Assembly: GCA_014360755.1 (NCBI GenBank)
Contig: JACIWX010000003.1
Location: 283,678 to 347,677, forward strand
Reading direction: 5' to 3'
From: Chloroflexota bacterium
Lineage (GTDB): Bacteria > Chloroflexota > Anaerolineae > UBA2200
Length of the DNA stretch: 64,000 bases
Shown here: positions 2,740-44,911 of the stretch, piece after piece
How the letters are laid out: every line of letters starts with the position of its first letter
How positions within the stretch are numbered: the stretch's first letter is position 1
The notes under the pieces: generated by a model
Told to the model about the DNA's origin: nothing
Databases searched by the model: none
The model's input: the letters and a program-made list of their open reading frames with translations, nothing else
Made by a program: the position numbers and the translations under genes

Positions 2740-2880
2740 CGGCTAGTTAGGCCATGCATGACAGAAGGCTTGTAGTGGTGGGGTATATTACAACAAAGCT
2801 GGTGTCACGGCGTCACTGCAAGCCTTGCTTGTCATATTGACAGTACTTGTGTCCATTTCATAGTTGAGGAGCAATCAAAT

Positions 2881-3897
2881 ATGCGGAATCCCAAAATCAA
2901 TGAGGCAATCCTTTCTGGATACACTGCGGATATTTACTTTTCCCGTACCCAAGCGATCCTGCGCGCTGAAGGGCTGGATCCAGTAGTCACTATGGAGATT
3001 TTCCCCAATGGAGATGGCATCCTATGTGGGATCAATGAAGCGCTCGATCTCCTCGCGCAAGTATTGCCAGATGAAAGTGAAGTGTGGGCACTGGCTGAAG
3101 GTGAACCTATGTCAGCTAAGGAAGTCGTGTTGCGCATCACGGCCCCCTATTCACGGTTTGGGCTATACGAGACAGCGATACTGGGGATGTTAGCGCAGAC
3201 CAGTGGCTGGGCGACAGCAGCGCGGGCTTGCGTGGAAGCGGCGGAGGGCATTCCGGTGATTAGTTTTGGGGCGCGGCACGTGCATCCAAGCGTGGCCGGG
3301 CGACTGGAATATGCCGCTATTGTTGGTGGCTGTGCAGGCTGCGCGACGCCTGCTGGCGCTGACTTGGCGGGGTTGGAAGCCACTGGGACAATTCCTCACG
3401 CGATGATCCTGATCTTTGGCGATACCGTCAAGGCAACAGAGGCTTTTGACCGTCACATGCCGCCTGAAGTTCGCCGTGTGGCATTGGTAGATACTTTCAA
3501 AGACGAATGTGAGGAAAGCCTGCGTGTCGCTGCAGCCCTGGGACGCAAGTTGTGGGGGGTTAGACTAGATACACCGCCAGAGCGTGGGCGTGTAACTCCG
3601 GAATTGGTCAAAGAGTTGCGTGCACGACTGGATCAAGCGGGATATACTTGGGTCAAAATTGTGGTGAGCGGCGGAGTGGATGCAGCACGCATTCGTCTGT
3701 TTCGCGAGCAAAAAGCGCCTGTGGACGTATTCGGCGTAGGCAGTGCCATCAGCAGCGCTCCGCCTATTGACTTTACCGGTGATCTAAAGGTGGTCGCAGG
3801 CAAGCCTATTGCTAAGCGAGGTCGCATTCCTGGGATTACACCCAATCCTCGCCTGCAGCGCATTGATTTGACAGCAATCAAAAAGGCAGCTCGCTAA
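2881..3897 (+). CDS. nicotinate phosphoribosyltransferase family protein
   Basis: 338 aa. The N-terminus (NEAILSGYTADIYFSRTQAILRAEGLDPVVTMEIF) and the GxxGxGT region are typical of the NAPRTase/PncB family. It is shorter than the E. coli enzyme. Confidence 0.55.
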   Translation: MRNPKINEAILSGYTADIYFSRTQAILRAEGLDPVVTMEIFPNGDGILCGINEALDLLAQVLPDESEVWALAEGEPMSAKEVVLRITAPYSRFGLYETAILGMLAQTSGWATAARACVEAAEGIPVISFGARHVHPSVAGRLEYAAIVGGCAGCATPAGADLAGLEATGTIPHAMILIFGDTVKATEAFDRHMPPEVRRVALVDTFKDECEESLRVAAALGRKLWGVRLDTPPERGRVTPELVKELRARLDQAGYTWVKIVVSGGVDAARIRLFREQKAPVDVFGVGSAISSAPPIDFTGDLKVVAGKPIAKRGRIPGITPNPRLQRIDLTAIKKAAR

Positions 3898-4561: not shown

Positions 4562-7009
4562 ATGATGGACGATTGGGAACTTGGACCATTTCCAACCAAG
4601 CTCTTGTTAGATGATAGCATGGAACCAGAAGCGTTGCCCTTGCTGCCCGTACGGGATACCGTGCTGTTTCCCTATGTGGCAGCACCTCTCTTTATCAGCC
4701 GCGACCGCTCCATGAAAGCGGTGGAAGCAGCAGTATCTGGCGACCAGCGCATTGCCGTTTTCACCCAGCGAGATCCCGAGGTGCAGGATCCCGGCATTGA
4801 CGATCTTTACGAGTTTGGAACAGAGGCAGTGATCGGCCGTGTCTGGCGTATGCCGGACCAAACAACGAGCGTTTTTGTCCATGGGCGAAGACGCTTGCGC
4901 CTTTTGAATCTGGTCAAGACGGAGCCGTATCTGGTCGCGCAGGTGCAACCGGTGGTTAAGAATGTGGAACCTTCCATCACTGCCGAGGCACGCATGCGCG
5001 CCGTGTTGACTCTGTTCGAGAAGGTAGTGCGGTTGAGCCGTAATATCCCGGATGATGCTTTTGTCATGGCCATGAACGTCAATGATCCCAACTGGCTGGC
5101 TGACTTGGTGGCTTCCAACCTTAATCTGGATGTGGCGACCCGGCAGGAGCTCTTGGAGATCGTTGATCCATTGGCAAGACTGGAGAAAATCAGTGTGCTG
5201 CTGGCGAAGGAACTGGATGTGCTAGAGCTGGAGAGCCGCATCCATTCGCAAGTGCAGCAAGAGGTGGACAAGAGCCAGCGCGAATATTTCCTGCGTGAGC
5301 AGATGCGGGTTATCCAGAGCGAGTTGGGCGAGACGGATCCTTTGGCGCGTGAGATCAACGAATTGCAAGAGAGGATCGCGGCAGCCAAAATGCCCGACGA
5401 AGTCCGCGAGAGGGCAGAAAAGGAGCTGGGCCGCCTGGCAAGTATGCCCTCTGTCGCTCCAGAAGCGAGCATTATCCGCACCTACATTGACTGGTTGCTT
5501 GATCTGCCTTGGAGTGAATGTACGGAAGATAACCTGGATATTGCCCATGTCAGCAAGGTGCTTAATAAAAATCATTACGGATTGAATAAAGCCAAAGAGC
5601 GCATCTTGGAGTATATCGCTGTGCGCAAGCTCGCCCCGGAGAAGATGGGCACGACCATTCTGTGCTTCGTAGGGCCACCGGGAACGGGCAAAACCTCCCT
5701 GGGCAAGTCCATTGCCGAAGCACTGGGGCGCAATTTCGTGCGGGTGAGCCTGGGTGGAATCCGCGATGAAGCGGAGATCCGTGGCCACCGTCGTACCTAC
5801 ATCGGCGCACTGCCAGGCCGCATCATACAAACCATGCGCCGCGCAGGCACCATCAACCCTGTTTTCATGTTGGACGAAATAGACAAGTTGGGGGTTGATT
5901 TCCGTGGCGACCCTTCAGCGGCGCTGCTGGAAGTCCTGGACCCAGAGCAGAATTACGCTTTCTCCGATCACTACCTGGAAGTGCCCTACAACCTATCCAA
6001 AGTGATGTTCATTACCACGGCGAACATCCTCGATCCCATCCCACCTGCTTTGCGCGACCGCCTGGAAGTGATTGAATTTCCAGGGTATATCGAAGAGGAG
6101 AAAATTGAGATTGCCAGGCAGTTCCTCGTGCCGCGCCAGCTTGAGCAACACGGATTAACGGGCCTTCATTTCCCTCGCGAGACGCTGCGGCGCATTATTC
6201 GGGAATACACTTTCGAGGCTGGCGTGCGCAATCTTGAACGTGGGATTGCGACCATCTGCCGCAAAGTGACACGGCGCGTCGCCGAAGGCAAACAGCCACC
6301 GCGCTATATTCTGCCCCAGAGCCTGCACAAATATCTAGGCCCACCGGAGTTTCTCTTTAGCGAGGCGGAGAAAGCAGACGAAGTAGGCGTGGCCACTGGC
6401 CTTTCCTGGACGGAAGCGGGGGGAGATACCATGGCTATCGAAGTAACCGTGATGCCTGGCAAAGGCAACCTCCTGCTTACTGGCCAGTTGGGAGAAGTGA
6501 TGCAGGAATCTGCCCAGGCAGCCTTGAGTTACGCGCGGGCACATGCCCAGGAATTGGGCATCAAAAACGTTGACTTTGACAAAGTGGATATCCACGTCCA
6601 TGTGCCTGAAGGCGCCATCCCTAAAGACGGTCCATCTGCCGGCATCACCATCGCTATAGCGATGATCTCAGCCCTAACGCGGCGGCCAGTCCACCGTGAA
6701 GTCGCCATGACCGGCGAGATCACCCTGCGGGGCCATGTGCTGCCCATCGGTGGCCTAAGGGAGAAGGTGCTCGCTGCCTATCGCGCGGGATTGAAGACCG
6801 TGCTCCTGCCTAAGAAGAATCGCAAAGACCTGGTGGATATCCCGCGCAAAGTACAACGAGGGCTTAACTTTGTCTTTGTAGAACATATGGAAGAGGTGGT
6901 GCCGATCGCATTGGTATCTCCTGAGCAGAAGCAAAAGCGAAAACAGGCTCCTTCAGCCAAGAATAGGCGGAGTGTGGAAAGACATGAACAAGGGATTAAA
7001 CCATCGTAA
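4562..7009 (+). CDS. lon: ATP-dependent Lon protease (LonA)
   Basis: Lon N-domain ([13 protein letters not shown]), AAA+ Walker A (GPPGTGKTS) and protease Ser motif (DGPSAGIT). ATG at 4562 is preferred over the TTG ORF start at 4556; GGAGG lies at 4546-4550. Confidence 0.9.
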
Positions 7010-8084
7010 TCGCTTGCCCAGGGCCTCTCTTTTCGCTGCTCGGCTAGCCTGCGCGGCGATGCTTCCTCTGCTATTGCTGCTGACCGCCTGCAGCACTACG
7101 CCGACGCCAACCCCGCCAGCAAAGACGATTAGTTTCTCTGAGGACATATTTGCCAGAGGCTTCCTGCCTGGCAAGACCTATTTGGACATCAAACGAGAGG
7201 ACACTGACTCCGATGGCCAATTGGAATGGGTTGTCTTTTACCGTTTTGACCAGGTGGGCGGGGGTGGGCCAGTAGCCGCCTTGATTTACGATGTTGTGCT
7301 TGACCCTGAATCACAATTGCCCATTGTCTATCCCTACAAATTGCGCACACCCGACCAGAACTACCTGGCACAGGACATACCAGAGCTCTCTTTGGTGGAT
7401 ATTATGAAAGAAGATGGCCACACGCGCAAAGAACTGGTCTTTAGCACGGATAGTGAGTTGGTCTTTTTCCGCCTCACCCGTGATCCGTCTGGTCCGCCTG
7501 TGGACAATCCCCCCTTGTACCATTGCATCGGGTTTTTCCGCAGCGATGGCGGGGTGCATTTCAATCCCGAAAATAGCCGGGTCACGGTTACCAGCCGTGC
7601 TGGTTATGAGCGCAGCCAGCTGGTTACCAGGCGGGAGTTTGAGCCGATTGCTGATGGCTATTTCCTGACCAATACCACAACCCTGGTCTCGCCCGTTGAA
7701 TCCCGGGTGGATTTCCCAGAGGGCATCCCATCCACTATTCTGGATACCCCATATCCTGAGAAAATTGTCCTCGCCTTCTACCAGACGCTCGGCAAATCCG
7801 ATGCGAAGCCAAGCCTTTACGAATATCTGAGCACTCAGGCAGCCACAGAGCTGATGCAGGGCAAATTGAGGTACGGGTCGCCGCTCCCCTTCACGCAAAT
7901 ACAGCGTGCTATTGTCCAAGAGCTCAGTTATTACCCTACCCAAGAAGACTCCACGTCCGCTCTCGTGATTGCCAAGGTCATTTTCCAGCCAAAGGAAGGC
8001 GCGCCCAGTTCTCTGATTGAGGTGCGCTGGAGGCTGATCCGGGTAGGGACCCAGTGGAAGATGGACTATGCCGAACCCGGATGA
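6972..8084 (+). CDS. hypothetical lipoprotein
   Basis: Signal peptide with lipobox (LLLLLTAC) followed by a Thr/Pro linker. The start is uncertain because the ORF overlaps the lon 3' end. Confidence 0.5.
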   Translation: MWKDMNKGLNHRNRLPRASLFAARLACAAMLPLLLLLTACSTTPTPTPPAKTISFSEDIFARGFLPGKTYLDIKREDTDSDGQLEWVVFYRFDQVGGGGPVAALIYDVVLDPESQLPIVYPYKLRTPDQNYLAQDIPELSLVDIMKEDGHTRKELVFSTDSELVFFRLTRDPSGPPVDNPPLYHCIGFFRSDGGVHFNPENSRVTVTSRAGYERSQLVTRREFEPIADGYFLTNTTTLVSPVESRVDFPEGIPSTILDTPYPEKIVLAFYQTLGKSDAKPSLYEYLSTQAATELMQGKLRYGSPLPFTQIQRAIVQELSYYPTQEDSTSALVIAKVIFQPKEGAPSSLIEVRWRLIRVGTQWKMDYAEPG

Positions 8085-9333: not shown

Positions 9334-10218
9334 CTACTTCGTACTATCCACGCGTTGCCAGAGGGCAGTAAAGGGTTTCTTGCGCCATTTGACATCCCAC
9401 CACACGCGCAGCCAGACGTGCGTTCTAGCTGCGAAGAGGAGCAATGTCCACCACAGTTCACGGCAGTTACGCGCATAGCGCAGAGCACTCCAAACTCCCG
9501 CGACTGCTTCGCGGCGAAACGACCTCATCCCTCTCGCATTCTGGACATACCCTTGTGCATAACCGCCCATGGAGCGGATTTTCTGCTTCATCCAATCCTG
9601 GTACGTGGTTGGATATTTGACATAAACTATCGCGTCGGGGGCATAGGCAGTGCGCCAGCCTTGCTCCCAGATATGGTGGGAGATAAAGCCATCCTCTGCC
9701 AAAGAATCCACGGGGATTGCTTTTACCAATGCGCGGCGGAACGCATACAGGTATCCCGAACACTCCAGGAATTCCCCACGGTTAGCCCGCAGCATTCTCT
9801 GGCGGTGTGCTCCTGCATCGACCAACAGATGAGACCAATAGCCCAGCATGGTATGACGAGGATTGAGTGAAACCGGTCGGCCACTCACGATGCCTACCTT
9901 GGGATCGGTGAATGCGGACAGGAGCGCACGCACAGCCCCAGGGGCAACGTAGACATCACCATCGCTCAGGATGACGATCTCCCCTTTGGCTGCGCTGAGG
10001 GCTAGGTTCAATGCAGCCGGTTTGCCTTGGGCTTGGTCGCGCAGGCATCGCACGTGCTCGTTTCGCGCGGCGTATTCCGCCACTACATCGGCTGTTCCTT
10101 CGTCTGGACAGACCACCAATAGTTCGTAATCGCTGGGCAAATTCTGCGCAAGGAAAGATTCAATAGCCCGGCCGATGGTCTTTTCTTCGCGATAGGCAGT
10201 GATAATAATGGTGAGCAT
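9334..10218 (-). CDS. family 2 glycosyltransferase
   Basis: MLTIIITAYREEKTIGRAIESFLAQ... together with the DxD region (SDGDVYV) indicate a GT2 fold. Confidence 0.7.
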   Translation of the reverse strand: MLTIIITAYREEKTIGRAIESFLAQNLPSDYELLVVCPDEGTADVVAEYAARNEHVRCLRDQAQGKPAALNLALSAAKGEIVILSDGDVYVAPGAVRALLSAFTDPKVGIVSGRPVSLNPRHTMLGYWSHLLVDAGAHRQRMLRANRGEFLECSGYLYAFRRALVKAIPVDSLAEDGFISHHIWEQGWRTAYAPDAIVYVKYPTTYQDWMKQKIRSMGGYAQGYVQNARGMRSFRREAVAGVWSALRYARNCRELWWTLLLFAARTHVWLRVWWDVKWRKKPFTALWQRVDSTK

Positions 10219-10333: not shown

Positions 10334-10990
10334 ATGATGATGGACAAACGCGCCCTTTTTGCACGCCTGAAAGTGGAAAGGATGCACATCGCCCCTCGTG
10401 CGCTGGAGTTGTCACCAATTGAAGTACAGCGCCGGTTTCCCCATGCCTGGGCACCGCTTGAGGAATTGTTAAAGCGGTTGCGTGCTTTCCCCGCTGGCTT
10501 GGTGCATTTCTGGTTAGAGCAGCCTGGTGGCCATGTCGTGCTCACGCATTTGCCTTCGCGCTATGTGTTTGGGGAGCAGAGGCTCAAGAGACATCTATTG
10601 CGCCATGTCGCCTATGTGAGGCTGTCTGATTTGGCAGACGGCTCGCTGGAAGCGTTGGTACCCATAGGGCATTTACTCGATCATTTGCTGAGCACTGCAG
10701 GAACTGCAGGAGGTGAAGAAGGGCTGTGGTTTTCCGAAGGAGGAGGCATGAACCGCACCTTGCAGGGGCTTGGCGCGAGTATCGTTGCATTATTCGCCCT
10801 GGGATACGGCTTTGACACCGAGGCTTGCCGGGATGTCCGCTCCTACTTTGCCCGTTCCTTTGCTCTCTATCTGCATGACCGGCGCGCTTTGAACGTGGCT
10901 GACCCTCAGATGGAAAAGTTGCTCAGAACAACCCTATTCGCGGAGGCTTTCTGGAGCCGACTGCAGGAAAAGTCTGCTGATCAGCCATAG
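10334..10990 (+). CDS. hypothetical protein
   Basis: 218-aa ORF with a clean frame. No recognisable motif. Confidence 0.35.
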   Translation: MMMDKRALFARLKVERMHIAPRALELSPIEVQRRFPHAWAPLEELLKRLRAFPAGLVHFWLEQPGGHVVLTHLPSRYVFGEQRLKRHLLRHVAYVRLSDLADGSLEALVPIGHLLDHLLSTAGTAGGEEGLWFSEGGGMNRTLQGLGASIVALFALGYGFDTEACRDVRSYFARSFALYLHDRRALNVADPQMEKLLRTTLFAEAFWSRLQEKSADQP

Positions 10991-16528: not shown

Positions 16529-16537
16529 CGCTATTAT

Positions 16538-16760
16538 GAGAGTGTGGAAAATCTTGTTACCCTGAGTGAAGCGAAGAGCCTGCCCTGAGTGCAACGAAGG
16601 GGTCTCGCGTAACTTTCGTATTTTCCCGAGTACTGCGAGATGCTTCGCTTTCCCTTCGCTTTCCCTTCGCTTTCCCTTCGCTTCGCTCAGGGCAAGGCTC
16701 AAGGCAAGGCTCAGGGCGAAGGTTCAGCATGACATTGGAAGGGCTTTTTTCAACACCTTC
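16538..16760 (-). mobile_element. MITE-like element, copy 1 (reverse orientation relative to copies 2 and 3) with internal microsatellite expansion
   Basis: Bounded by 14-bp terminal inverted repeats GAGAGTGTGGAAAA ... TTTTCAACACCTTC and flanked by direct repeats CTATTAT(G) at 16531-16537 and 16761-16767. About 85% identical to the reverse complement of copies 2 and 3. Internal tandem repeats: CTTTCCCTTCG x3 at 16648-16680 and CAAGGCTCA x~3. Confidence 0.7.
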
Positions 16761-16771
16761 CTATTATGCCA

Positions 16772-16809
16772 TTGTGCTTTTTGTGAAGCACAAGACGGTG
16801 GGCTATAAT
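16772..16809 (+). promoter_or_regulatory. putative promoter with overlapping operator-like inverted repeat upstream of the CDF transporter gene
   Basis: Inverted repeat TTGTGCTT-N6-AAGCACAA at 16772-16793 overlaps a -35-like TTGTGA. -10 TATAAT lies at 16804-16809 with a 17-bp spacer. A second short IR GGCTA/TAGCC brackets the -10. Confidence 0.4.
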
Positions 16810-18900: not shown

Positions 18901-20700
18901 TTAGACGTTCTTCTTTTCCTCGACCGCCTTCAGCGCCATAGCGATGAATTCCTCTAACGGTTTGGGACCCAGGTTCTCCTCGCTGCGCAGGCGCACGGAC
19001 ACTGTCCCGTCCTGAACCTCCTTATCACCCACGATCAGCATATACGGGATTTTCTGCAATTGCGCCTTGCGCACTTTGGCGTTCATGCGTTCCTCGCTGT
19101 CGTCTACCTCAGCGCGGAGCCCGGCTTCCTTCAGGCGCTGGAGCACCTGGCGTGCATATTCGTTGTGGCGGTCAGCGATGGGGATGATTTCTACCTGGAC
19201 AGGCGATAGCCACACCGGAAAAGCGCCGGCATAGTGCTCAATCAGACCGCCCACGAAGCGCTCCATGCTGCCCAACACAGTGCGATGCACCATTACCGGA
19301 CGGTGCTCCTTGCCATCCACACCGACAAACGTGAGGTCGAAACGCTCTGGGAAATTGAAATCCACTTGGATGGTGGGACCTTGCCAGCCGCGCCCCAACG
19401 CATCGCGCATTTTGATGTCAATGGCTGGGCCGTAGAACTTGGCTTCTCCTGGCATGACCTTGTACTCGATTTGGCGCTGCTTAAGTGCTTCTTCCAGTGC
19501 GGATTCAGCCGTCTCCCACACAGCATCTTCCCCGATGTACTTCGCCTTGTTCGCAGGGTCGCGCACGGACAGTTCCACGTCGAATTGCTCGTAGCCAAAC
19601 GTGCGCAGCATGAAGAAGGCGAGGTCCAGCACCCCAACGATTTCGTCCATGAGCTGGTCGGGGCGACAGAAGATATGGGCATCGTCTTGCGTGAAGCCGC
19701 GCACGCGCAACATGCCATGCAGCACGCCGCTCCGCTCGTAGCGGTAGACTGTACCTAATTCTGCCCAACGCAGCGGGAGATCGCGATAAGAGCGCGTCCG
19801 CGTCTTGTACATCAGCACGGCGAAGGGGCAGTTCATCGGCTTGAGCAAGTATTCTACCCCATCAATGTTAATCGGTGAGTACATCATGTCGCGGTAAAAA
19901 TCCCAATGGCCGCTGATCTTCCACAGGTCCAGCCTGCCAATATGTGGACTGTAGACGATATCGTAGCCGCGCTTGCGGTGCTCCTGCCGCCAGAAGTTTT
20001 CGATGATCTCGCGGATGAGCGCCCCTTTGGGATGCCAATAGACCAGCCCGGCGCCGCCGATTTCATGCGTGCTGAACAAGTCCAGTTCGCGCCCCAGCTT
20101 GCGGTGGTCACGTCGCTCGATTTCGGCTAACTTGTGTAAGTATGCTTCGAGTTGCTCGCGGGTAGGCCATACCGTCCCATAGATCCGTTGCAGCATGGGA
20201 CGGTGCTCATCACCACGCCAGTAGGCGCCCGCCACATTGAGCAGCTTCAAACCCTCTGGGTTGATCTCGCGCGTATTGGACACATGGGGACCACGACAGA
20301 GGTCAACGAATGAGCCATGTTTGTAGATGCTCAGTTTGGGCGGCCCTTCTGCGGCCTCGCCGTATTCGTCCTTGCCGCCAGCCAGGATGTCCTGAATCAG
20401 CTCCAGTTTATAGGGCTGGTCGGCAAAGATCTCCCGTGCCTCTGCTTCGGAGACCTCGCGGTACTCAAAGGGGTGATCCTCTTGCACAATCTGCTTCATA
20501 CGCGCCTCGATCTCCTGCAAATCCTCGGGAGTCAAAGGGCGAGGCAAATCAAAATCGTAATAGAACCCCTCTTCGATTGCCGGCCCAATGGCCAGTTTGC
20601 CCTCAGGGAACTTTTCTAGCACCGCCTGGGCCATGACATGGGCGGCAGAGTGCCTTAACTTGTGCAAGAATTCCTCGTTTTGATCGTGTTCTTTAGACAT
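18901..20700 (-). CDS. thrS: threonyl-tRNA synthetase
   Basis: Class II aaRS and ThrRS motifs (HRDLKP..., GGAGLVYWHPKG). The true start is ATG at 20700-20698 (MSKEHDQNEEF...). The 60 upstream codons of the ORF-track call lie inside the T-box leader. Confidence 0.9.
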   Translation of the reverse strand: MSKEHDQNEEFLHKLRHSAAHVMAQAVLEKFPEGKLAIGPAIEEGFYYDFDLPRPLTPEDLQEIEARMKQIVQEDHPFEYREVSEAEAREIFADQPYKLELIQDILAGGKDEYGEAAEGPPKLSIYKHGSFVDLCRGPHVSNTREINPEGLKLLNVAGAYWRGDEHRPMLQRIYGTVWPTREQLEAYLHKLAEIERRDHRKLGRELDLFSTHEIGGAGLVYWHPKGALIREIIENFWRQEHRKRGYDIVYSPHIGRLDLWKISGHWDFYRDMMYSPINIDGVEYLLKPMNCPFAVLMYKTRTRSYRDLPLRWAELGTVYRYERSGVLHGMLRVRGFTQDDAHIFCRPDQLMDEIVGVLDLAFFMLRTFGYEQFDVELSVRDPANKAKYIGEDAVWETAESALEEALKQRQIEYKVMPGEAKFYGPAIDIKMRDALGRGWQGPTIQVDFNFPERFDLTFVGVDGKEHRPVMVHRTVLGSMERFVGGLIEHYAGAFPVWLSPVQVEIIPIADRHNEYARQVLQRLKEAGLRAEVDDSEERMNAKVRKAQLQKIPYMLIVGDKEVQDGTVSVRLRSEENLGPKPLEEFIAMALKAVEEKKNV

Positions 20701-21035
20701 ATTTCTTCTCCTTATCATACCAGCAATCAGTGGGTAGCGCGCCTTAACAAAAAACCCTCTCACCCAAGGGGCGAGAGGGGACTCACGCGGTTCCACCCAA
20801 TTTCGACAACCAGGTTTGGTTGTCCTCCTTATGGCCGATAACGGGTGCCTCCGGGGCTCCATACTCTGCTCAGCCTGCATTTCCGGAGCCGGCTCTCAGG
20901 TGGTTTTCGCTGGGCTCCCGTTGAGAAGGCTCGCAGTCTATGACCTTCCCTCCCTGGAACGGCTCCTCCAGCTACTCGTCCTGATCACAGCCGATAAACA
21001 AAACCCACGGACGTACCGTGGGCTTCGTCGCCTTT
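20701..21035 (-). promoter_or_regulatory. T-box riboswitch leader of thrS (specifier ACC, Thr)
   Basis: On the minus strand: stem-I GAGTAG element; specifier loop GCGAAAACCACC (GAA-ACC-A, Thr codon); T-box sequence AAATTGGGTGGAACCGCG at 20805-20788; intrinsic terminator CCCTCTCGCCC-CTT-GGGTGAGAGGG followed by TTTTTTGTT at about 20783-20746. Confidence 0.75.
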
Positions 21036-21071: not shown

Positions 21072-21130
21072 ACAAGCGAAAGCCTTCGGGTGTAGTTCAG
21101 TTTGGGGGCAGAATATGGATAAGCGTGGAC

Positions 21131-21547
21131 GGCGGACTGTGCTCCGCCTGGAGCAGGATGGATTAGACCTGTCAGGTCTGTTTAAGATCCCTGGAGCGTG
21201 GACGGCGGCGTTTGCCATTGAGCCTGCCAGGGATTGAAATCCCTGGCTGAAACAGCAAGCCCCCTGAAGGGGGCTGCAGCCAATCACCAGTCGGCTTTAG
21301 CCGACTTGCACGTTTCAGCCAGGGAATTGATTCCCTGGCGGCATCTGGGCCTGGGCTCCCATGCCCAGGCGAGGTGGTCTCCTGTGTTACCCTGAGGCGA
21401 AGCCGAGGGGTCTCATGGAACTGAGGGAGATTCTGAGCCGCTACGCGGCTCAGAATGACAATGGGAGAGCAGTTGCTCTCATGTTTGGCGTGGACAGCGG
21501 GTGATCTACCTGGAGCAGTCTCACGCTCGGCGTGGACCACAGTCCAC
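21131..21547. repeat. dense array of perfect palindromes / nested inverted repeats (unclassified structured element)
   Basis: At least ten perfect palindromes with 1-6-bp centres: 21131-21148 GGCGGA..TCCGCC; 21165-21179 AGACCTGTCAGGTCT; 21227-21246 CCAGGGATTGAAATCCCTGG; 21259-21274 GCCCCCTGAAGGGGGC; 21289-21306 AGTCGGCTTTAGCCGACT; 21319-21338 CCAGGGAATTGATTCCCTGG; 21349-21370 GCCTGGGC..GCCCAGGC; 21433-21453 CTGAGCCGCTACGCGGCTCAG; 21465-21480 GAGAGCAGTTGCTCTC; 21532-21547 GTGGAC..GTCCAC. Direct repeat GCGTGGACGGCGG at 21122-21134 and 21196-21208. A 27-bp imperfect inverted repeat (21227-21253 versus 21312-21338) encloses two of the hairpins. No credible ORF. Confidence 0.6.
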
Positions 21548-21718
21548 GCTGGGTATCAGATAGCCCCGTCTACTTGAGGAGCGAATCCGTTCCATCCGTT
21601 CCCCAAATCTGCTGACAGTGATTGTTCTTGGCCAGACTTGGCTGCTTTTCATCCGCCTGGGGCTGTGCAAGGCATTTCTTGCCCCAAAAGTGAACTACAC
21701 CCCAAGCGCACGCAGCAC

Positions 21719-21763: not shown

Positions 21764-21844
21764 GGGGAAGTGTCGGAATGGTAGACGAGCGTGACTTAGG
21801 ATCACGTGGAGCAATCCGTGAGAGTTCGAGTCTCTCCTTCCCCA
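21764..21844 (+). tRNA. tRNA-Leu (anticodon TAG), class II with long variable arm
   Basis: Manual fold: acceptor GGGGAAG/CTTCCCC, D-arm TCG-GAATGGTAGA-CGA, anticodon stem CGTGA/TCACG with loop CTTAGGA, variable stem GGA/TCC, T-arm GAGAG-TTCGAGT-CTCTC, discriminator A. CCA is not encoded. Confidence 0.9.
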
Positions 21845-21861: not shown

Positions 21862-21933
21862 GCGGAAGTGGCTCAGCGGTAGAGCATCTCCTTGCCAAGG
21901 AGAGGGCCGCGGGTTCGAATCCCGTCTTCCGCT
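21862..21933 (+). tRNA. tRNA-Gly (anticodon GCC)
   Basis: Acceptor GCGGAAG/CTTCCGC, D-arm GCTC-AGCGGTAG-AGC, anticodon stem TCTCC/GGAGA with loop TTGCCAA, T-arm GCGGG-TTCGAAT-CCCGT, discriminator T. Confidence 0.9.
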
Positions 21934-28058: not shown

Positions 28059-29567
28059 ATGCAAATCATTGAGCTTCAAGGCGACGAGAATATTGCAGTC
28101 ATTCGAAACCTCCTGGAGCAAGCCACTGATCAGGAGGTGGTGCTCTTTGTGCCCAGGGGATGTGAGGCACTAGAGAGGAACGAAGTCAACCTCAGGGTAT
28201 TGCGCCGCTGGGCGGACAATCTTGCCTTGCACGTTGCCCTGGTCATCGAGGACAGGGGTACGCATGTTATGGCCCGGCAAGCAGGATTTGTTTTGTTACC
28301 CTCTATTGCCAAAGCCCAGCAAACCAATCTGCGCCTTTTGGAACGCCGCAAGCGCCGTTTCGAAGGGTTGCCACCACGTCCGAGTCCTGCTGTACCGCTT
28401 GCCCCGCCAAGACAGACGCCGAGCAGGGCTGCCCGGAGACCCACCTCCCGCGTCTTCGTTGGCATCCTGGTCAGTTTGCTCGCCTTCCTGACCCTTACGC
28501 TGACCGTGCTGGTCATCTTGCCCAGCGCTACGATCACCCTTACGCCGGTCAGTGAGCCTGTAGAAGCCTCTATGGAAATCGTCGGCGTAGCTGGCTTGAC
28601 GGACATCAATTACGGCCTGGCTGAAGTACCAGCGCGCTTAGTTTCTGTTGAACGCGAGGGCAGTGATAAGATTGCCACCACAGATCGGCGGGACGTCCCG
28701 GATGCACACGCACAAGGAACGGTAATCTTTGCCAATAAAACGACCATTCCAGTAACGATCACTAAGGGTACGGTGGTGCGCACCAGCACTGGCGACAATG
28801 TGCGCTTCTATACTGTGGCTGATGCCTGGTTGCCTGGTGAACTGTTCGCCACGGTGCGTGTGGGTATCCTGGCAGCAGAGCCAGGCCCAAAAGGCAATGT
28901 GCCTGCCCTGAGCATCAATGTAATAGAAGGCGAACTGGCTGCACAAGCTGATGTGTTGAATGATGCGCGCACCAGCGGTGGCACAGTGCGCCGAATGCCC
29001 ATCGTAGCTAGCGAAGATGAGGTGAACCTGCGTGCTAAATTGATGAAACGCCTGCAGGAAGAAGCCTACCGCGAATTGACGGCTGCCCTAAGCAAGAGTG
29101 AGTTCATTCCCCCGGATTCCCTGAGCATTGCAATCATAAACGAGAAGTTTGATCACAAAGTGGGGGACATGGCAGATGAGCTGGGCATGAGCATGAAAGT
29201 AAGGGTAACCGGCTTGGCAGTTGACACTGCCAATGGAGAGAAACTGTTGCTACGGCTGCTAGAGCAACGCATGAAACCAGGCTATCGCTTGCTTGAGGAG
29301 AGTGCTTCCTTTCAGCAGGATGGTTTGATTGAGGCCTCATCCAACAAAGCGCGTTTTCGCATGAGCGCACGGGCCAGAATCGCGCCTGCTATTGACGCTA
29401 GTGAGGTCAGGCATGCCGTTGCCGGCAAGACGATTGAAGCAGCCAGAGAACACCTGATGCGACAATTCAAACTCAGCACTGCTCCGCAGATTCAATTGCA
29501 GAACAGCTTGCTCCAGCGTTTGCCATGGTGGACCGCTCGCATTCATGTGCGGGTTAGCACAAGGTGA
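28059..29567 (+). CDS. hypothetical membrane-anchored protein (single TM near residue 145; possible baseplate-J-like beta-rich domain, low confidence)
   Basis: 502-aa ORF with a clean frame, an Arg/Pro-rich linker, then the hydrophobic segment VFVGILVSLLAFLTLTLTVLVIL. It sits in the conserved alaS-X-ruvX-mltG neighbourhood. Confidence 0.5.
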   Translation: MQIIELQGDENIAVIRNLLEQATDQEVVLFVPRGCEALERNEVNLRVLRRWADNLALHVALVIEDRGTHVMARQAGFVLLPSIAKAQQTNLRLLERRKRRFEGLPPRPSPAVPLAPPRQTPSRAARRPTSRVFVGILVSLLAFLTLTLTVLVILPSATITLTPVSEPVEASMEIVGVAGLTDINYGLAEVPARLVSVEREGSDKIATTDRRDVPDAHAQGTVIFANKTTIPVTITKGTVVRTSTGDNVRFYTVADAWLPGELFATVRVGILAAEPGPKGNVPALSINVIEGELAAQADVLNDARTSGGTVRRMPIVASEDEVNLRAKLMKRLQEEAYRELTAALSKSEFIPPDSLSIAIINEKFDHKVGDMADELGMSMKVRVTGLAVDTANGEKLLLRLLEQRMKPGYRLLEESASFQQDGLIEASSNKARFRMSARARIAPAIDASEVRHAVAGKTIEAAREHLMRQFKLSTAPQIQLQNSLLQRLPWWTARIHVRVSTR

Positions 29568-31316: not shown

Positions 31317-33410
31317 ATGAGCAACCTAAGCGACCGATCTACATTGCCTGCGGAACCGCTTCCTCCATGTCAGGTTGCCTGTCCAGCACACACCGATGTC
31401 CGGGGCTATATCCACGCCATCGCGCGCGGAGATTTTGAAGAAGCCTACCGTATAGCGCGCGAACCCAATCCCTTGCCTTACATCTGCGGCAAGGTTTGTG
31501 CTCATCCCTGTGAGACCGAATGCCGACGCGGTGACGTTGATGAGCCCGTCGCCATCTGTGCGCTGAAGCGTTTCGCGACAGAGCAACACGACCTGAGCAA
31601 AGGCCATGCGCCAGGGCTAACCGTCGCAGAGCCAAAGGAGGAAAAAGTAGCGATCGTCGGCTCAGGCCCCGGCGGCCTGACCGCTGCCCATGACCTGGCA
31701 CGCATGGGTTATAAAGTTACCGTCTTCGAAGCTTACCCCAAAGTTGGCGGCATGATGCAATATGGCATTCCTCTCTATCGCTTGCCGCGTGAGACCATTG
31801 ACCTTGAAACGGCCCCCCTGAAGGATCTAGGCGTCGAGTTCGTCACTAATCAGCGGGTTACCGATGTAGACGCCTTGCTCGCAGATGGCTACAAAGCAGT
31901 ATTCCTGGCCGTTGGTTCTCATGTGGGACGCAAGCTACGCATTCCCAATGCAGACCTGCCTGATGTCTGGTTGAACACGGAATTCCTGCGGCGGGTGGCT
32001 TTGGGAGAGAAGATTGACCTGAGAGGACGCCACGTGCTGGTGCTGGGAGGAGGCAACGTAGCCATAGATGTGGCACGCACAGCATTGCGCCTGGGTGCAG
32101 CCGAGGTTTCCATGACTTGTTTGGAGAGCTGCACCACACAGCCAGCACATCCTTGGGAAATCAAGGAGGCTGTGGAAGAGGGCGTGCAGATGTTCCATGA
32201 CCGCACATTCAAAGAAATTGTCGCTGAGAATGGCAAAGTCAAGGGCGTGCGCTGCGTCAAGGTGAACTTCCGTGGCTTCTTGCCAACTGGTGCGCCGGAC
32301 ATGGATGAATTCCCCGAAACAGAGCATGTCCTCCCGGCAGATTTGGTCATTTTTGCGATTGGCCAGGGCCCTGACCTCAGTTTCCTGCCCCAAGATGGCT
32401 CTATTGCTCAGACACCACGGCGCACAATCCAAGTCAATCCTGTTACCTTGGCTACTACCAAACCAGGCGTCTTTGCCGGTGGGGATGCCGTCACTGGTGT
32501 GGGATTTATTATTGATGCTATTGCAGCAGGGCATCGCGCTGCTCGCTCCATAGACGCTTACCTGCGAGGTCTTGATCCGGCTTCTGTGCAGCCTCCTGAG
32601 CCGCAGAAGCTCAATGATCTGCAACAAAAGACCATCTCCCACATCCGCCACCTGAAGCGCGAAGAGATGCCCATGTTGGATGTCAACCAACGCAAGTTCA
32701 CCTTTGACGAAGTATACCTAGGCTATACGGAGGCACAGGCTATCCGCGCCGCGCATCGCTGCCTTACTTGTGGCGCGGGTGCGCGAGTAGAGGAAACCAA
32801 GTGCATTGCTTGCCTCACCTGCGTGCGGGTCTGCCCTTATGAAGTGCCATTACTGGCGCGTGGCACTGCAAATGTGCCTGTAGATCAGTGTCAAGCCTGT
32901 GGCATTTGCGCGACCGAGTGCCCGGCGAAAGCGATCTCGATGAAACTCTATTCCGATGAGGACATGATCAAACAGATTCGCGATGCGGTGCGCAAGGCCA
33001 AGTACAATGGCGAACCGGCCATTGTAGGCTTTGCCTGTCGCTATTGTGCCTATGCTGGCGAGGATGCGAACGTAGTCAAAGCAAGCCTGCCGGCGAATGT
33101 GCAAACCATTGACGTGCTGTGCACGGGGAAGGTAGATGCTCTGTACCTGCTGAAGGCCTTCGAATTTGGTGCCGATGGCGTATTTGTGGCAGGTTGTCTG
33201 GAAGGCGAGTGTCACAATGACAAGGGCAATGTCCACGCTGCAAAACGCGTGGCTTACGTAAAAGGATTGCTGGATGAACTCGCTCTGGGCAATGCACGGC
33301 TGGAAATGTTCCACATGTCCCCTGACCAATGCGCCAACATGGCCGAGGTCGTCAGCACACTGATTACAAAGGTCAAAGAATTGGGACCTAGTCCGGTGAG
33401 GAGAAGCTAA
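31317..33410 (+). CDS. fusion oxidoreductase: GltD/NfnB-like FAD-NAD(P) domain + 2x[4Fe-4S] ferredoxin + MvhD-like domain
   Basis: N-terminal Cys cluster (CQVACPAHTD...CGKVCAHPCETEC) and dinucleotide fold GSGPGGLTAAHDLARMGYKVTVFE. Two CxxCxxCxxxCP motifs (CIACLTCVRVCP, CQACGICATECP). The C-terminus (VGFACRYCAYAGED...LCTGKVD...) matches the methyl-viologen-reducing hydrogenase delta-subunit family. Confidence 0.7.
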   Translation: MSNLSDRSTLPAEPLPPCQVACPAHTDVRGYIHAIARGDFEEAYRIAREPNPLPYICGKVCAHPCETECRRGDVDEPVAICALKRFATEQHDLSKGHAPGLTVAEPKEEKVAIVGSGPGGLTAAHDLARMGYKVTVFEAYPKVGGMMQYGIPLYRLPRETIDLETAPLKDLGVEFVTNQRVTDVDALLADGYKAVFLAVGSHVGRKLRIPNADLPDVWLNTEFLRRVALGEKIDLRGRHVLVLGGGNVAIDVARTALRLGAAEVSMTCLESCTTQPAHPWEIKEAVEEGVQMFHDRTFKEIVAENGKVKGVRCVKVNFRGFLPTGAPDMDEFPETEHVLPADLVIFAIGQGPDLSFLPQDGSIAQTPRRTIQVNPVTLATTKPGVFAGGDAVTGVGFIIDAIAAGHRAARSIDAYLRGLDPASVQPPEPQKLNDLQQKTISHIRHLKREEMPMLDVNQRKFTFDEVYLGYTEAQAIRAAHRCLTCGAGARVEETKCIACLTCVRVCPYEVPLLARGTANVPVDQCQACGICATECPAKAISMKLYSDEDMIKQIRDAVRKAKYNGEPAIVGFACRYCAYAGEDANVVKASLPANVQTIDVLCTGKVDALYLLKAFEFGADGVFVAGCLEGECHNDKGNVHAAKRVAYVKGLLDELALGNARLEMFHMSPDQCANMAEVVSTLITKVKELGPSPVRRS

Positions 33411-33411
33411 C

Positions 33412-34080
33412 ATGATCAAAGCACAACAAAAACCCATCGCCGAGATCAAGGCATTGATCGCTCCATACCACAGAATCCTGATCCTTGGCTGTGGTACATG
33501 TGTTACCATCAGTTTTGCCGGTGGCGAGAAAGAGGTTGGATTGCTGGCTTCCAGCCTGCGCATTGCTTCGGCTATGGAGGGACAGGATAAAATATTCGCT
33601 GAAGCAACTGTGCAGCGCCAGTGTGAATGGGAGTTCATTGATGCTGTTGCGGAACAGATTCAGCAAGCAGATGCCGTTCTCTCTCTCGCTTGTGGCATTG
33701 GGGTGCAAGCCCTAGCCGAGCGCTATCCCGATAAGGTTGTCCTGCCTGGTGTGAATACCACCTTCCTAGGCATGGCGGTGGAGCACGGCGTCCTGGTAGA
33801 GCGTTGCCGTGCCTGCGGTGATTGCATCCTGGGCTTGACTGGTGGCGTGTGTCCTATTGCGCGCTGTGCCAAAAACCTGCTCAATGGCCCCTGTGGTGGC
33901 TCGCAGAATGGCAAATGCGAGGTTAATCCGGAGCTTGACTGTGCCTGGCAGCTCATCTATGACCGCTTAGCCAGATTGGGACAACTAGACCGCTTGGCCG
34001 CCCTGATGCCATACAAGGATTGGTCTAAGGACTATGACGGCGGCCCACGTAAGATTGTAAGGGAGGATCTGAGGCTATGA
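33412..34080 (+). CDS. metV: MetV-like methylene-tetrahydrofolate reductase small/C-terminal-domain subunit
   Basis: 222 aa. Cys-rich (GCGTC...CRACGDC...CPIARC) zinc-ribbon-containing protein immediately upstream of, and overlapping, metF, as in acetogen metV-metF pairs. Confidence 0.65.
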   Translation: MIKAQQKPIAEIKALIAPYHRILILGCGTCVTISFAGGEKEVGLLASSLRIASAMEGQDKIFAEATVQRQCEWEFIDAVAEQIQQADAVLSLACGIGVQALAERYPDKVVLPGVNTTFLGMAVEHGVLVERCRACGDCILGLTGGVCPIARCAKNLLNGPCGGSQNGKCEVNPELDCAWQLIYDRLARLGQLDRLAALMPYKDWSKDYDGGPRKIVREDLRL

Positions 34081-35000
34081 AAGTCGGCAGTAATCTCGAA
34101 AAAGTGCTCACCAGCGGCTACTTTGCCGCTACTGGGGAATTGGGCCCTCCCAAAAGCGCTGACCCAGGAGTGATCCGCCATAAAGCGAGCCTGCTCAAGG
34201 GGTACGTGGACGCGGTCAACATCACCGATAACCAGACAGCCATTGTCCGTATGTCGAGCATCTCTGTGGGCATCATGCTATTGCAATTGGGGCTAGAGCC
34301 CACGATTCAAATGACGTGTCGTGACCGCAATCGCTTGGCGATTCAATCCGACCTGCTGGGGGCAGCTGCCCATGGCGTGAAGAACCTGCTCTGTCTGACA
34401 GGCGACCACCAACGCTTTGGCAACCATCCCACAGCCCGTGGGGTATACGACCTGGATTCCATCCAGCTGATCCAGATGGTCAAAACGATGCGCGATGAGA
34501 AAAAGTTCGCTTGCGGCGAAGAAATGGATGTCGAGCCACGTTTCTTTATCGGGGCAGCGGAAAACCCCTTTGCAGACCCATTTGATTACCGGCCTTATCG
34601 CTTGGCGAAGAAGATTGCGGCAGGAGCGGACTTTATACAGACTCAGCTTATTTACAATGTACCCAAGTTCAAAGAGTTCATGAAGCGGGTTTGTGATCTA
34701 GGTTTGCACGAAAAGTGTTACATCCTGGCTGGGGTTGGTCCCATTAAAAGCGTCGGTATGGCTCGTTATATGCAGACCAGCGTCCCTGGTATGGACGTGC
34801 CTGAAGAAATTGTGGCACGGTTGAAGGGGGTGCCAAAGGATCAAGTGCGCAAAGAGGGCATCAAGCAGTGCGCGGACATTATCTCTGAAATACGGGAGAT
34901 CCCAGGCGTCGCCGGCGTACACGTTATGGCCATCGAATGGGAAGAGGCCGTGCCCGAAATCCTGGAACTGGCAGGACTGCTGCCACGGCCAAAGGTATAA
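34077..35000 (+). CDS. metF: 5,10-methylenetetrahydrofolate reductase
   Basis: MTHFR TIM-barrel motifs (VNITDNQTAIVRMSS, LCLTGDH). 307 aa. Confidence 0.85.
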   Translation: MKVGSNLEKVLTSGYFAATGELGPPKSADPGVIRHKASLLKGYVDAVNITDNQTAIVRMSSISVGIMLLQLGLEPTIQMTCRDRNRLAIQSDLLGAAAHGVKNLLCLTGDHQRFGNHPTARGVYDLDSIQLIQMVKTMRDEKKFACGEEMDVEPRFFIGAAENPFADPFDYRPYRLAKKIAAGADFIQTQLIYNVPKFKEFMKRVCDLGLHEKCYILAGVGPIKSVGMARYMQTSVPGMDVPEEIVARLKGVPKDQVRKEGIKQCADIISEIREIPGVAGVHVMAIEWEEAVPEILELAGLLPRPKV

Positions 35001-35048
35001 AACCGTAGGCACGGGTTCGTTCTGGTAGTCTTACTGTAGGCATCTGGT

Positions 35049-35639
35049 TTATGGACCTTTGGCTCTGCGAAGCTGGGCCACGTATATGCGACGAATCTCA
35101 GTAAAGATTTCGATATAGCGCGGGCTGGCATAGTCCGGATAAGTCCATTCCCAGGGATGGAAAGCACCGTGTCTATATTGTAGGGTTACTTCGGCATAAA
35201 TGCCCTGCCCCAAATAGATGCGATGAGAATAGTCTTTGGTGGTAGCCAACACGAGCTTGCCCAGTGAGACGTAGCCTGGATCCAAATTGACACGGCGCCG
35301 TCCCTCTACAGCCCAGGTCATTTCCAGGTCGTTGGTGATGCGTTTGATCTCGGCCAATCGGTCTGGCGGAACCAATTCCATGAAGGCAACAATTTGCCGC
35401 ACCAATCCTTCGCCGAACTCGCGGGCATAATAGGAGGTGCGGTTAAAAGGCAACAACTCGCTTTGGTAGTCAATGGGTCCAAAGCGGTTGGCTAATGCCC
35501 CTCTGGCCACTGCCAATAGGGTTTCATCTGCAGTAAAAATGCTGGCAATCAACTTGACGGGGGGCGGTTCATTGATCTTGCCCATCTCCAACCCTTCCTC
35601 TGTCCGAGTATTATAGCGGAAAAGCGAGTGGGTCCACAA
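35049..35639 (-). CDS. hypothetical protein (conserved, unknown function)
   Basis: 196-aa ORF with good RBS context. No catalytic motif recognised. Confidence 0.45.
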   Translation of the reverse strand: MWTHSLFRYNTRTEEGLEMGKINEPPPVKLIASIFTADETLLAVARGALANRFGPIDYQSELLPFNRTSYYAREFGEGLVRQIVAFMELVPPDRLAEIKRITNDLEMTWAVEGRRRVNLDPGYVSLGKLVLATTKDYSHRIYLGQGIYAEVTLQYRHGAFHPWEWTYPDYASPRYIEIFTEIRRIYVAQLRRAKGP

Positions 35640-35810
35640 AAATGATGAGTAACGAGTGATGAGTGCGGGTTATAACAAGTACCAATGGTAACGGTTCTCC
35701 CCAATTTTTTACCTAAAATGCGCGTATCTTACACCTATGCTCCAATACTTGTCTGGCTGTTACTCGTATACTTTGTTACAAAATACAAGGGAGGAAAGTA
35801 GTACGAGCCT

Positions 35811-37049: not shown

Positions 37050-37506
37050 AGAACAAGACCGTGAAGCGGTCCTAGCCATTTCAGAAGGAGTGGGAGTATT
37101 CACCCCAGAAGAAGTAGCCTGTGTAGATGATCTTCTCCAAGTGTATCTTTACAAGCCTGAACAGCAGGACTATACCTTTATAGGTGCTTATAACCAGAGC
37201 GGTTCCCTCCTTGGCTATGTCTGCTTTGGCCCCACTCCATTGACAAAAGGGACATATAGCATCTATTGGATAGCGGTCAGCAAGTCCGCACAAGGACAAG
37301 GAGTAGGACGCGCGTTGTTAGACTGGGCTGAGCAATATCTGCGCGCCGCATGTGCTCGTTTATTGATCCTTGAAACCAGCAGCACACCCGAGTACAGACC
37401 AGCGCGCAGGTTCTACAAGAAATTGGGCTACAAAGGCTGTACTCGTGTGCCGGACTTTTACAGCCCCGGGGACGATCTGGTGATATTCTATAAGGCGTTG
37501 CGCTAA
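37027..37506 (+). CDS. GNAT-family N-acetyltransferase
   Basis: Acetyl-CoA binding motif (QGQGVGRALLDWAE). The probable TTG start at 37027 follows GGAGG (37016-37020) and overlaps the ATP-grasp gene 3' end by 23 nt. Confidence 0.65.
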   Translation: MFTIHPIEEQDREAVLAISEGVGVFTPEEVACVDDLLQVYLYKPEQQDYTFIGAYNQSGSLLGYVCFGPTPLTKGTYSIYWIAVSKSAQGQGVGRALLDWAEQYLRAACARLLILETSSTPEYRPARRFYKKLGYKGCTRVPDFYSPGDDLVIFYKALR

Positions 37507-37614
37507 CTAGCGACTGCTCGTTGTATCATGTATAATGCATTTGCCTCAGAGGTTTCCCAGCCAAGCAGCCTGAAGGCATGCACAAACTCCCCTTGAAAGG
37601 CACGGAGGAAACAA

Positions 37615-38145: not shown

Positions 38146-38189
38146 CCCAGCGGTGAAGGGAGGAGGCTGGCAAGACCAGGCCAAAGCCA

Positions 38190-39152: not shown

Positions 39153-39163
39153 CCTGCTTGCCA

Positions 39164-39340
39164 GAGGGTGTTGAAAAAGCTCTTCCAATGTCATGCTGAA
39201 CCTTCGCGCTGAGCAAAGCGAAGGGGAAGTGAAGCATCTCCCAGTACTTGGGGAAATACAGCTAAAGTTACGCGAGACCCCTTCGTTGTACTCAGGGCAG
39301 GCTCTTCGCTTCGCTCAGGGAGAAAAGATTTTCAACACTC
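39164..39340 (+). mobile_element. MITE-like element, copy 2
   Basis: TIRs GAGGGTGTTGAAAA ... TTTTCAACACTC. Flanking direct repeats (C)TTGCCA at 39157-39163 and 39341-39346. Internal long imperfect palindrome (CTGAGCAAAGCGAAGG / CTTCGCTTCGCTCAG). Confidence 0.7.
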
Positions 39341-39433
39341 TCTTGCCATTGCTATCCCTCGAAGAATTGTCTTGCCTTTCCATTTTGGCAAGAAGCCACA
39401 ATTTGGTTATAATCTTCACCAGTTTGTGAGAGG

Positions 39434-39721
39434 GTGAGTATGCCGGATACAGTGCGATTGCATGCCAGGGTATACGGCCTGGTCCAAGGTGTGAGTTTCC
39501 GCTACTATACCTTGCGTAAGGCGCAAACGTTGGGGCTGACTGGCTATGTGCGGAATCGCTGGGATGGCAGTGTCGAGGTCGTAGCAGAGGGCGAACGCGC
39601 GGCGGTAGATCAACTGCTGTCCTGGTTACATGTGGGTCCACCTTCCGCTGAAGTGGAACGTGTTGAGTTTGAGTGGCAAAAACCACTGGGCGAGTTCAGG
39701 CAGTTTGAGGTGCGATTCTAA
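39434..39721 (+). CDS. acyP: acylphosphatase
   Basis: [14 protein letters not shown]...[13 protein letters not shown] is the acylphosphatase signature. 95 aa. Confidence 0.8.
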
Positions 39722-40944: not shown

Positions 40945-40997
40945 GAGCGCATGAAAGGCTCTGTGCAAAGACGACAAAATAGACAAAGGAGGTCACA

Positions 40998-41621: not shown

Positions 41622-41713
41622 GCCACCGGTGAACGTGGTGGCTTGTGCCTTTGTCATTGCCCCGAGTACTTGTACCTAGAAACGGAATTCCGAGATTGAG
41701 AAAGGAGAGCAAG

Positions 41714-42601: not shown

Positions 42602-42692
42602 TAGCCCTGTTTGACAATGTCAGCAAGCTGTGGTAAGATTTGCGGCAGCTGCGGTAGTGAAAGATTTCACAATTAGGCACAGTGCAGGGAAT

Positions 42693-42846
42693 GAGAGTGT
42701 TGAAAAAGCCTTTCCAATGTCATGCTGAACGGAGTGAAGCATCTCGCAGTACTTGGGGAAAGAGGCTAAAGTTACGCGAGACCTCTTCGTTGCACTTAGG
42801 GCAGGCTCTTCGCTTCGCTCAAGGTGACAAGATTTTCCACACTCTC
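42693..42846 (+). mobile_element. MITE-like element, copy 3 (shortest), inserted between folD and fhs
   Basis: TIRs GAGAGTGTTGAAAA ... TTTTCCACACTCTC. Perfect 8-bp target-site duplication CAGGGAAT at 42685-42692 and 42846-42853 (C42846 is ambiguous between TIR and TSD). Confidence 0.7.
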
Positions 42847-43030
42847 AGGGAATTCGAGGCATTCAGTGTAATAGGATGCCAGTATTGTAACCCACGCGGG
42901 CGGTTTAGAGGGGTAGTTCCCCTTTGGGTGTTCTTGCCAATCTGAGTTCCGATCAAGCGCAGTTCCTTTATTTCACAATGCGTTTGATTTGTATATTCAA
43001 ATACATGATTGCACAAAGGAGGCAACAAAT

Positions 43031-44899: not shown

Positions 44900-44911
44900 G
44901 CCTTTGGGAAG

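Follow-up and report, generated by a model that had tools for sequence, protein, structure and literature searches.

A 64-kb stretch of DNA, here called the window, carries three copies (c1, c2 and c3) of one short, hairpin-forming repeat family. We consider it very probable that these repeats are MITEs of an uncultured lineage of Anaerolineae (Chloroflexota) and that they are moved in trans. The family is new and recently active; the kind of element is ordinary. Its members are 131-223 nt long and non-coding, they have inverted-repeat ends and flanking target-site duplications (TSDs), and they occur as dispersed copies for which empty sites are found in related DNA.

Structure of the elements in the window

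An nhmmer profile built from c1-c3 and blastn, both run over the 64 kb, returned exactly c1-c3 (E 4e-64 to 4e-52; Table 1), and no further family member was obtained in the 64 kb below E 1e-3 except self-palindromic matches. An earlier note on this DNA had reported three copies; its positions for c1 and c3 are exact, and its end of c2 moves from 39340 to 39342. The identity of about 85% that it gave is close once indels are counted, and aligned columns alone give a pairwise identity of 90.7-91.5%. The copies differ in length because of internal indels, and two internal tandem arrays lengthen the left hairpin of c1.

Table 1. Positions of the elements, their target-site duplications and associated features (window coordinates unless a contig is named)
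Feature	Position	Strand	Remarks
MITE copy c1	16538..16760	-	223 nt, long class; nhmmer E 5.8e-59
MITE copy c2	39164..39342	+	179 nt; nhmmer E 4.1e-64
MITE copy c3	42693..42846	+	154 nt, core class; nhmmer E 4.1e-52
TSD of c1, CTATTAT	16531..16537 (left), 16761..16767 (right)		read directly from sequence
TSD of c2, TTGCCA	39158..39163 (left), 39343..39348 (right)		read directly; sister-lineage empty site L035 has one copy
TSD of c3, AGGGAAT	42686..42692 (left), 42847..42853 (right)		read directly from sequence
Internal tandem arrays of c1	16643-16683, 16685-16727		11 nt x3.7 and 12 nt x3.5, respectively
Promoter-like TTGTGA-17-TATAAT	16781..16809	+	cation-efflux gene; downstream of c1
Promoter-like TTGGCA-17-TATAAT	39385..39413	+	acylphosphatase gene; downstream of c2; identical in sister lineage
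Promoter-like TTGACA-17-TAAGAT, upstream TG	42611..42639	+	10/12 consensus matches; 54 nt before c3
fhs (formate-tetrahydrofolate ligase gene)	43031-44899
Second repeat family, window copy	21084-21706	+	623-nt non-coding stretch
Second repeat family, other copies	L024 91-539; L087 9887-10345, 16310-16868; also L017, L018, L089-L093
Threonyl-tRNA synthetase gene	18901-20880	-
T-box leader	20764-20997	-	upstream of threonyl-tRNA synthetase gene
tRNA genes	21764-21844, 21862-21933	+

The 14-nt inverted repeat GAGRGTGTKGAAAA is present at both ends of c1, c2, c3 and every full copy found elsewhere. When the terminal pattern GAGAGTGTKGAAAA was searched in the window with up to two mismatches, seven matches were obtained, six of which are the six ends of c1-c3; shuffled windows gave a mean of 0.53 matches and a maximum of three. 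The inverted repeats are restricted to element ends in every fetched locus as well. Each element is composed of the two 14-nt inverted repeats (GAGRGTGTTGAAAA), a sub-terminal hairpin block at either end and a short central stem-loop. The left sub-terminal block has the form GTCATGCTGAAC-loop-GTGAAGCATCTC, and the right block, in inverted orientation, is GTCACCCTGAGCGAAGCGAAGAG.

The long internal imperfect palindrome that had been described in each copy was borne out by folding: c1, c2 and c3 each fold as a single long imperfect hairpin, with RNA minimum free energies of -51.7, -67.7 and -84.7 kcal/mol and z-scores of -2.25, -4.03 and -2.65, respectively, relative to dinucleotide shuffles. 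No Rfam family matched c1-c3 at gathering thresholds, and c3 had no match up to E = 10. Open reading frames called over the elements start within them and run into unrelated flanks, and frames differ among copies, leaving no conserved coding capacity; such calls are spurious, as the earlier note had held.

Further copies, target sites and probable mobilisation

Members of the family were sought in metagenomes with a 21-mer of the element core. This gave 11 loci, ten of them with full elements, all from metagenome Ga0315298, and two of the ten also carry a second copy. The eleventh locus (L025) was rejected as a chance match to the 21-mer with no element. A peptide search with the open frame of a 155-nt consensus returned seven short, spurious 'hypothetical proteins', each of which starts at an ATG within GTCATGCTGAAC and ends in a different flank; they marked further sites, and their contigs yielded additional copies and variants. 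Copies beyond the window, which the earlier note had proposed to look for, thus number at least 15 in related contigs, with a density there of about one per 20 kb (own count, flank copies included).

Alignment of 14 copies revealed three main size classes (131-132, 154-155 and 177-223 nt) and a modular order. The left part is made up of the left inverted repeat, block CCAATGTCATGCTGAAC, an optional nested hairpin of 24-70 nt and GAAGTGAAGCATCTCGC; the right part comprises the central stem-loop with GTTACGCGAGAC, an optional 23-nt unit, CTCTTCGCTTCGCTCAGGGTGAC and the right inverted repeat. The optional 23-nt unit resembles a diverged tandem copy of the unit after it. Several copies at separate loci are 98.5-100% identical, which points to a recent burst in the Ga0315298 population, and c1-c3 are older than these near-identical metagenome copies. 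Contig L087 additionally holds a 119-nt sub-family with ends GAGGGTGTTGACAAA (7183-7301), a deletion derivative of about 85 nt (9740-9798) and two decayed tandem units without the inverted-repeat ends (2626-2819).

Repeats of this kind raise the question of assembly, in that copies might have been pasted in by the assembler. Short-read contigs do break at every copy. Among Logan short-read contigs of the identical strain, those with a protein identical to a c1-c3 flanking gene were considered, and every one breaks inside an element: at c1, 53 nt past the stop of the aldehyde:ferredoxin oxidoreductase gene (aor) and 99-119 nt before the cation-efflux gene; at c2, 40 nt past the radical-SAM stop; and at c3, 180-230 nt before fhs. 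Such breaks speak independently for the repetitive nature of the elements. A chimeric join is also suggested by L017 (5039-5265) and L018 (8676-8900), which have an identical element and one flank in common and differ in the other flank; their join across the repeat is probably a chimeric assembly. Pairwise divergence among the window copies is, however, 8.5-9.3%, with indels private to each copy, and every copy is bordered by a matching target duplication of its own. Contigs that end in c1, c2 and c3 agree with the window, letter for letter, as far as the point at which they break. Because of these copy-specific differences and duplications, we regard a repeat-induced artefact as excluded for practical purposes.

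Flanking direct repeats, the recurrence of which at other insertion sites had been put forward as a check, were found at 15 independent sites, with lengths of 6 bp (n = 7), 7 bp (n = 4) and 8 bp (n = 4); 11 of the 15 are perfect. The range of 6-8 bp that had been attributed to the window copies is therefore that of the family as a whole, and c1-c3 themselves have duplications of only 6-7 bp, that of c2 being 7 bp if the terminal C of the element is counted in. The copy in L021, the right end of which is degenerate, has no duplication, and the copies in L093 and at L089 4042-4171 have degenerate ones. A constant duplication length was considered and rejected, since boundary shifts of 1-2 nt fit no single length to all sites; the spread of 6-8 bp is less regular than in most transposase families. 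With an average G+C of about 0.39, against 0.54 for the window, the duplicated segments are somewhat richer in A+T. In ten of the 15 sites, a small sample, the base immediately 5' of the duplication is C, the same as the last base of the element, which could reflect a target preference or hint at a microhomology-dependent step.

Empty sites were identified in a sister lineage represented by contigs L032, L035 and L036, which are those with a 99%-identical Fhs. L035/L036 align with the window over 21.9 kb at 95.0-96.3% identity, in three blocks that cover window positions 32673-39163, 39342-42674 and 42846-54882 and skip 39164-39341 and 42675-42845. At the c2 junction the blocks overlap by 7 nt, corresponding to one target copy; c2 is precisely absent from L035 and L036, where a single target copy takes the place of the element and its duplication. 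The c3 element is absent, again precisely, from L032/L035 and from the more distant lineage L033. The comparison with related strains that the earlier note had suggested thus shows the orthologous sites of both c2 and c3 to be empty in a lineage with about 95-96% identity. A third, paralogous empty site is provided by a 131-nt copy at L087 9972-10102, which is nested in another repeat with the duplication ACGCTT; at the corresponding position, the copies of the host repeat in the window and in L024 continue without a break. Taken together, the empty sites and the near-identical dispersed copies show insertion and not conservation.

Inverted-repeat ends combined with staggered-cut duplications are the signature of DDE enzymes, and for this reason a DDE-type mechanism was chosen. 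Both ends of the element would be bound by a DDE-type transposase whose gene lies at another place in the genome. The enzyme would make a staggered cut of 6-8 bp in the target and insert the element there; once repaired, the cut would leave the flanking duplication. Length variants would arise within the element, by slippage or deletion in the hairpins. The ends, the duplications, the multiple copies, the empty sites and the recent burst are shown by the sequences, whereas the kind of enzyme is inferred, and movement may be by cut-and-paste or by copy-and-paste. In the window, no ORF has a transposase domain, in agreement with the earlier note, which had seen neither a transposase nor an autonomous copy there. 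Neither the window nor some 325 kb of related DNA contains an element longer than 223 nt that is bounded by these ends, no transposase is listed in the gene tables of the related loci (about 325 kb), and no autonomous element was found in plasmid or viral collections. The combined end and sub-terminal pattern had one match in the viral collection, which is a chance match in coding sequence. The peptide search with the consensus frame was also considered as a route to a transposase that shares an element end, and was discarded in this respect as it gave only the seven short spurious ORFs. As these searches yielded neither a transposase nor a full-length IS with matching ends, we infer mobilisation in trans. 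Relatives of the element interior that lack these ends occur in the same contigs and in other phyla; the history of part of the sequence is therefore separate from that of the inverted repeats.

A different enzyme might be involved if the elements were REPIN-like or IS200/IS605-like and moved as single-stranded DNA, with an HUH enzyme (Y1, RAYT-type) recognising the sub-terminal hairpins instead of the inverted-repeat ends. A hairpin is indeed conserved in each half of the element, with a GNA loop and G.A pairs in tandem (CTGA-NC-GAA-GN-GAAG); we take it to be of the GCGAAGC type, a very stable DNA mini-hairpin. As a whole, the element consists of two such hairpins in inverted orientation. Palindromic pairs without inverted-repeat ends and with no visible duplication also occur in Hymenobacter, Vampirovibrio and other MAGs. 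HUH transposition is known to leave no target duplication, however, and the family has sharp inverted-repeat boundaries with 6-8 bp duplications at the 15 sites, along with exact empty sites. Moreover, neither the window ORFs nor those adjoining elements elsewhere have a Y1 or RAYT domain. The target duplications make the single-strand route very improbable, and we retain DDE-type mobilisation in trans as the preferred reading.

Gene setting and possible effects on neighbouring genes

The window is gene-dense, and its only long intergenic gaps are the three with elements and a region at 21.0-22.0 kb. The intergenic placement reported for c1-c3 was confirmed and extends to all copies, which lie 0-130 nt from the nearest long ORF in both orientations; between co-directional genes, sense and antisense orientations are about equally common. 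The c1 element lies 9 nt past the aor stop and 20 nt before the promoter-like site of the cation-efflux gene. The c2 element is located 11 nt past the stop of the radical-SAM gene, upstream of the acylphosphatase promoter-like site, and c3 is located between folD and fhs. The Fhs protein of the window is identical to one labelled 'MAG: Chloroflexi bacterium', and the proteins closest to it carry the name Anaerolineae.

Both c2 and c3 fall inside a Wood-Ljungdahl neighbourhood (31317-59247) with an NADH-dependent oxidoreductase-like gene and genes for MTHFR, FTCD_C, FolD, Fhs, Prismane/CODH, ACS, CdhD subunits, RACo and a pterin-binding methyltransferase; housekeeping genes are found alongside in the window. 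For a 502-aa ORF between alaS and ruvX (28059-29567, +), Pfam gives no more than a weak Baseplate_J-like match (E 7e-7), and ORFs 6972-8084, 10334-10990 and 39721-40944 have no Pfam match at E <= 1e-5.

The promoter-like site upstream of c3 is kept in both sister lineages although the surrounding spacer diverges. Given this conserved site, c3 is probably transcribed in the fhs leader and, judging from the sequence, probably adds a 154-nt hairpin to the 5' leader of fhs, which may affect expression. At the right end of the element, the -35-like hexamer GTGACA is positioned exactly 17 nt from the tip. It is speculative that a -10-like target next to this end could create an outward hybrid promoter. 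At c1 (16533-16560, -), a promoter-like GTAACA-16-CATAAT is formed by the right-end -35-like hexamer, 16-17 nt from the tip, and the A+T-rich duplication, and points into the 3' end of aor.

Location and fold also allow for a host-selected RNA structure (a terminator, insulator, mRNA stabiliser or leader regulator) whose mobility is incidental. The copies are always intergenic and near gene ends, they fold better than shuffles (z -2.3 to -4.0), and c3, with a conserved promoter-like site before it, is probably part of the fhs leader. In addition, contigs of three metagenomes, one of them assembled twice, have in common an insertion that precedes a glycoside hydrolase gene. Against this, the c2 and c3 sites are empty in the lineage of about 95% identity, which has the same genes and promoters; orientation relative to co-directional flanking genes is sense or antisense about equally often; and near-identical copies at unrelated loci indicate amplification, not conservation. 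The suggestion of the earlier note that the hairpins might act as terminators or insulators was not supported, as the elements contain no U-tract terminators, are inserted in both orientations and, in the case of c3, follow a promoter-like site. A search for a stem plus U-tract in c1-c3 gave no terminator spanning an element: c1 and c2 had only weak 5-pair matches, at the rate seen in shuffles, and c3 had none. We therefore assign selection by the host a very low probability and keep to transposition of a MITE. Since the sister lineage lacks the elements but retains these genes and promoters, there is no sign of host dependence on them, and the insertions look largely neutral.

The 21.0-22.0 kb region contains a second, larger repeat family, in a non-coding stretch between the T-box and the two tRNA genes (Table 1). 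The ends of this window copy pair over 34 nt, its fold is far more stable than those of shuffled sequences (z -9.6), and it has no Rfam match. The second family is a mosaic of hairpin sub-units with many occurrences in related contigs. It is probably mobile too, because a direct repeat of 9 bp (CATCTTGCA) borders a copy in L087 on both sides. The window copy has approximately 100 extra nt (~21385-21480) that are missing from the L024 copy and that consist of two MITE-type hairpin blocks, GTTACCCTGAGGCGAAGCCGAGGGGTCTC and GAGATTCTGAGCCGCTACGCGGCTCAGAATGAC. In contig L016, a MITE copy (2848-3002) is inserted one base from a second-family end, GGAACTACACCCC (~3003-3020). This insertion and the nested L087 copy show that the MITE and the second family cluster.

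The hairpin block in other phyla and comparison with known systems

The left sub-terminal block (TTCCAATGTCATGCTGAAC, a loop and GAAGCATCTC) forms a hairpin with tandem G.A pairs that is also found outside the family, without its inverted repeats. A left-end 19-mer had 12 matches in a genome collection of species representatives; four correspond to a related hairpin block, eight look like chance or coding matches, and the MITE family itself is not among the 12. The four block-carrying MAGs belong to Bacteroidales (33 nt identical to c3), Vampirovibrio, Gammaproteobacteria and Anaerolineales. A BLAST search of plasmids gave hairpin-block matches only, with close versions on Hymenobacter and Phocaeicola plasmids. 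Hairpin elements of other phyla with the block TTCCAATGTCATGCTGAAC...GAAGCATCT or TCAGCATCT are located at L005 6596-6700, L011 1137-1282, L012 4645-4745, L014 6800-6990 and L038 1501-1596. The block has no common neighbour gene in other phyla, where its flanks are unrelated housekeeping genes. In viral contigs, the hairpin-block pattern had 48 matches, all chance or coding, and the block is absent. The hairpin-block sequence strings were not found in the literature searched.

We tentatively raise the possibility, which on balance we doubt, that the left block is an undescribed hairpin module conserved nearly to the base across phyla and that the MITE is this module captured between transposon ends. 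If so, for non-coding repeats to be conserved in this way, a ligand or enzyme would have to be shared among them; candidates would be a widespread mobilising or processing protein or a function at the RNA level.

In practical terms, the family explains spurious 'hypothetical proteins' in the annotation of uncultured Anaerolineae as well as systematic contig breaks in their short-read assemblies, and the presence or absence of its copies provides strain-level markers. It is one more MITE without a known transposase, and its broader value would lie in the cross-phylum hairpin block, if that block is a functional unit.

Several known systems share features with these elements. One is the Rfam family RF02901 (AaHKsRNA41, an Aggregatibacter small RNA), with which the related Vampirovibrio (L011) and Hymenobacter (L038) elements score 46 and 41 bits (E 1e-7 to 1e-5). 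The gathering score of RF02901 is 97 bits, however, and related blocks in other phyla reach only 39-46 bits; the window element has no match to it up to E = 10 and lies outside that family. The source paper of RF02901 contains nothing on repeats. Like intrinsic terminators, the elements place a stable hairpin just past stop codons (9 nt for c1 and 11 nt for c2). They differ from terminators in that no G+C-rich stem followed by a U-tract is present in either orientation, the stem is imperfect and spans 130-220 nt, and c3 follows a promoter and not a gene end.

REP/REPIN sequences associated with RAYT are similar in being intergenic and multicopy and in pairing short conserved hairpins in inverted orientation to make a larger hairpin. 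REPINs have no terminal inverted repeats beyond their hairpins and no target duplication. Here, in contrast, both inverted repeats and duplications are present, and no RAYT gene was found among the window ORFs or neighbours. A REPIN/RAYT system would be recognised by a lack of duplication and by a RAYT Y1 gene flanked by the repeats, and these elements have neither feature.

Bacterial MITEs in general are exemplified by the Correia elements of Neisseria and RUP of Streptococcus pneumoniae, which duplicate TA on insertion; for Correia, too, no cognate transposase is in hand. A search of the literature with the exact strings of the ends and core gave nothing relevant, and neither this search nor Rfam revealed sequence similarity to a described family. 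The elements described here resemble these MITEs in their size (130-220 nt), their non-coding nature, inverted repeats and target duplication, and in having tens to hundreds of intergenic copies with a long hairpin fold, size classes generated by internal deletion, and presence or absence between close strains. With Correia they share the lack of a cognate transposase in hand. They differ from Correia and RUP in their duplication, which is a variable 6-8 bp instead of TA, and from described MITE families in that the hairpin block of which their interior is built is found beyond the family as well and in that their host is an uncultured member of the Anaerolineae.
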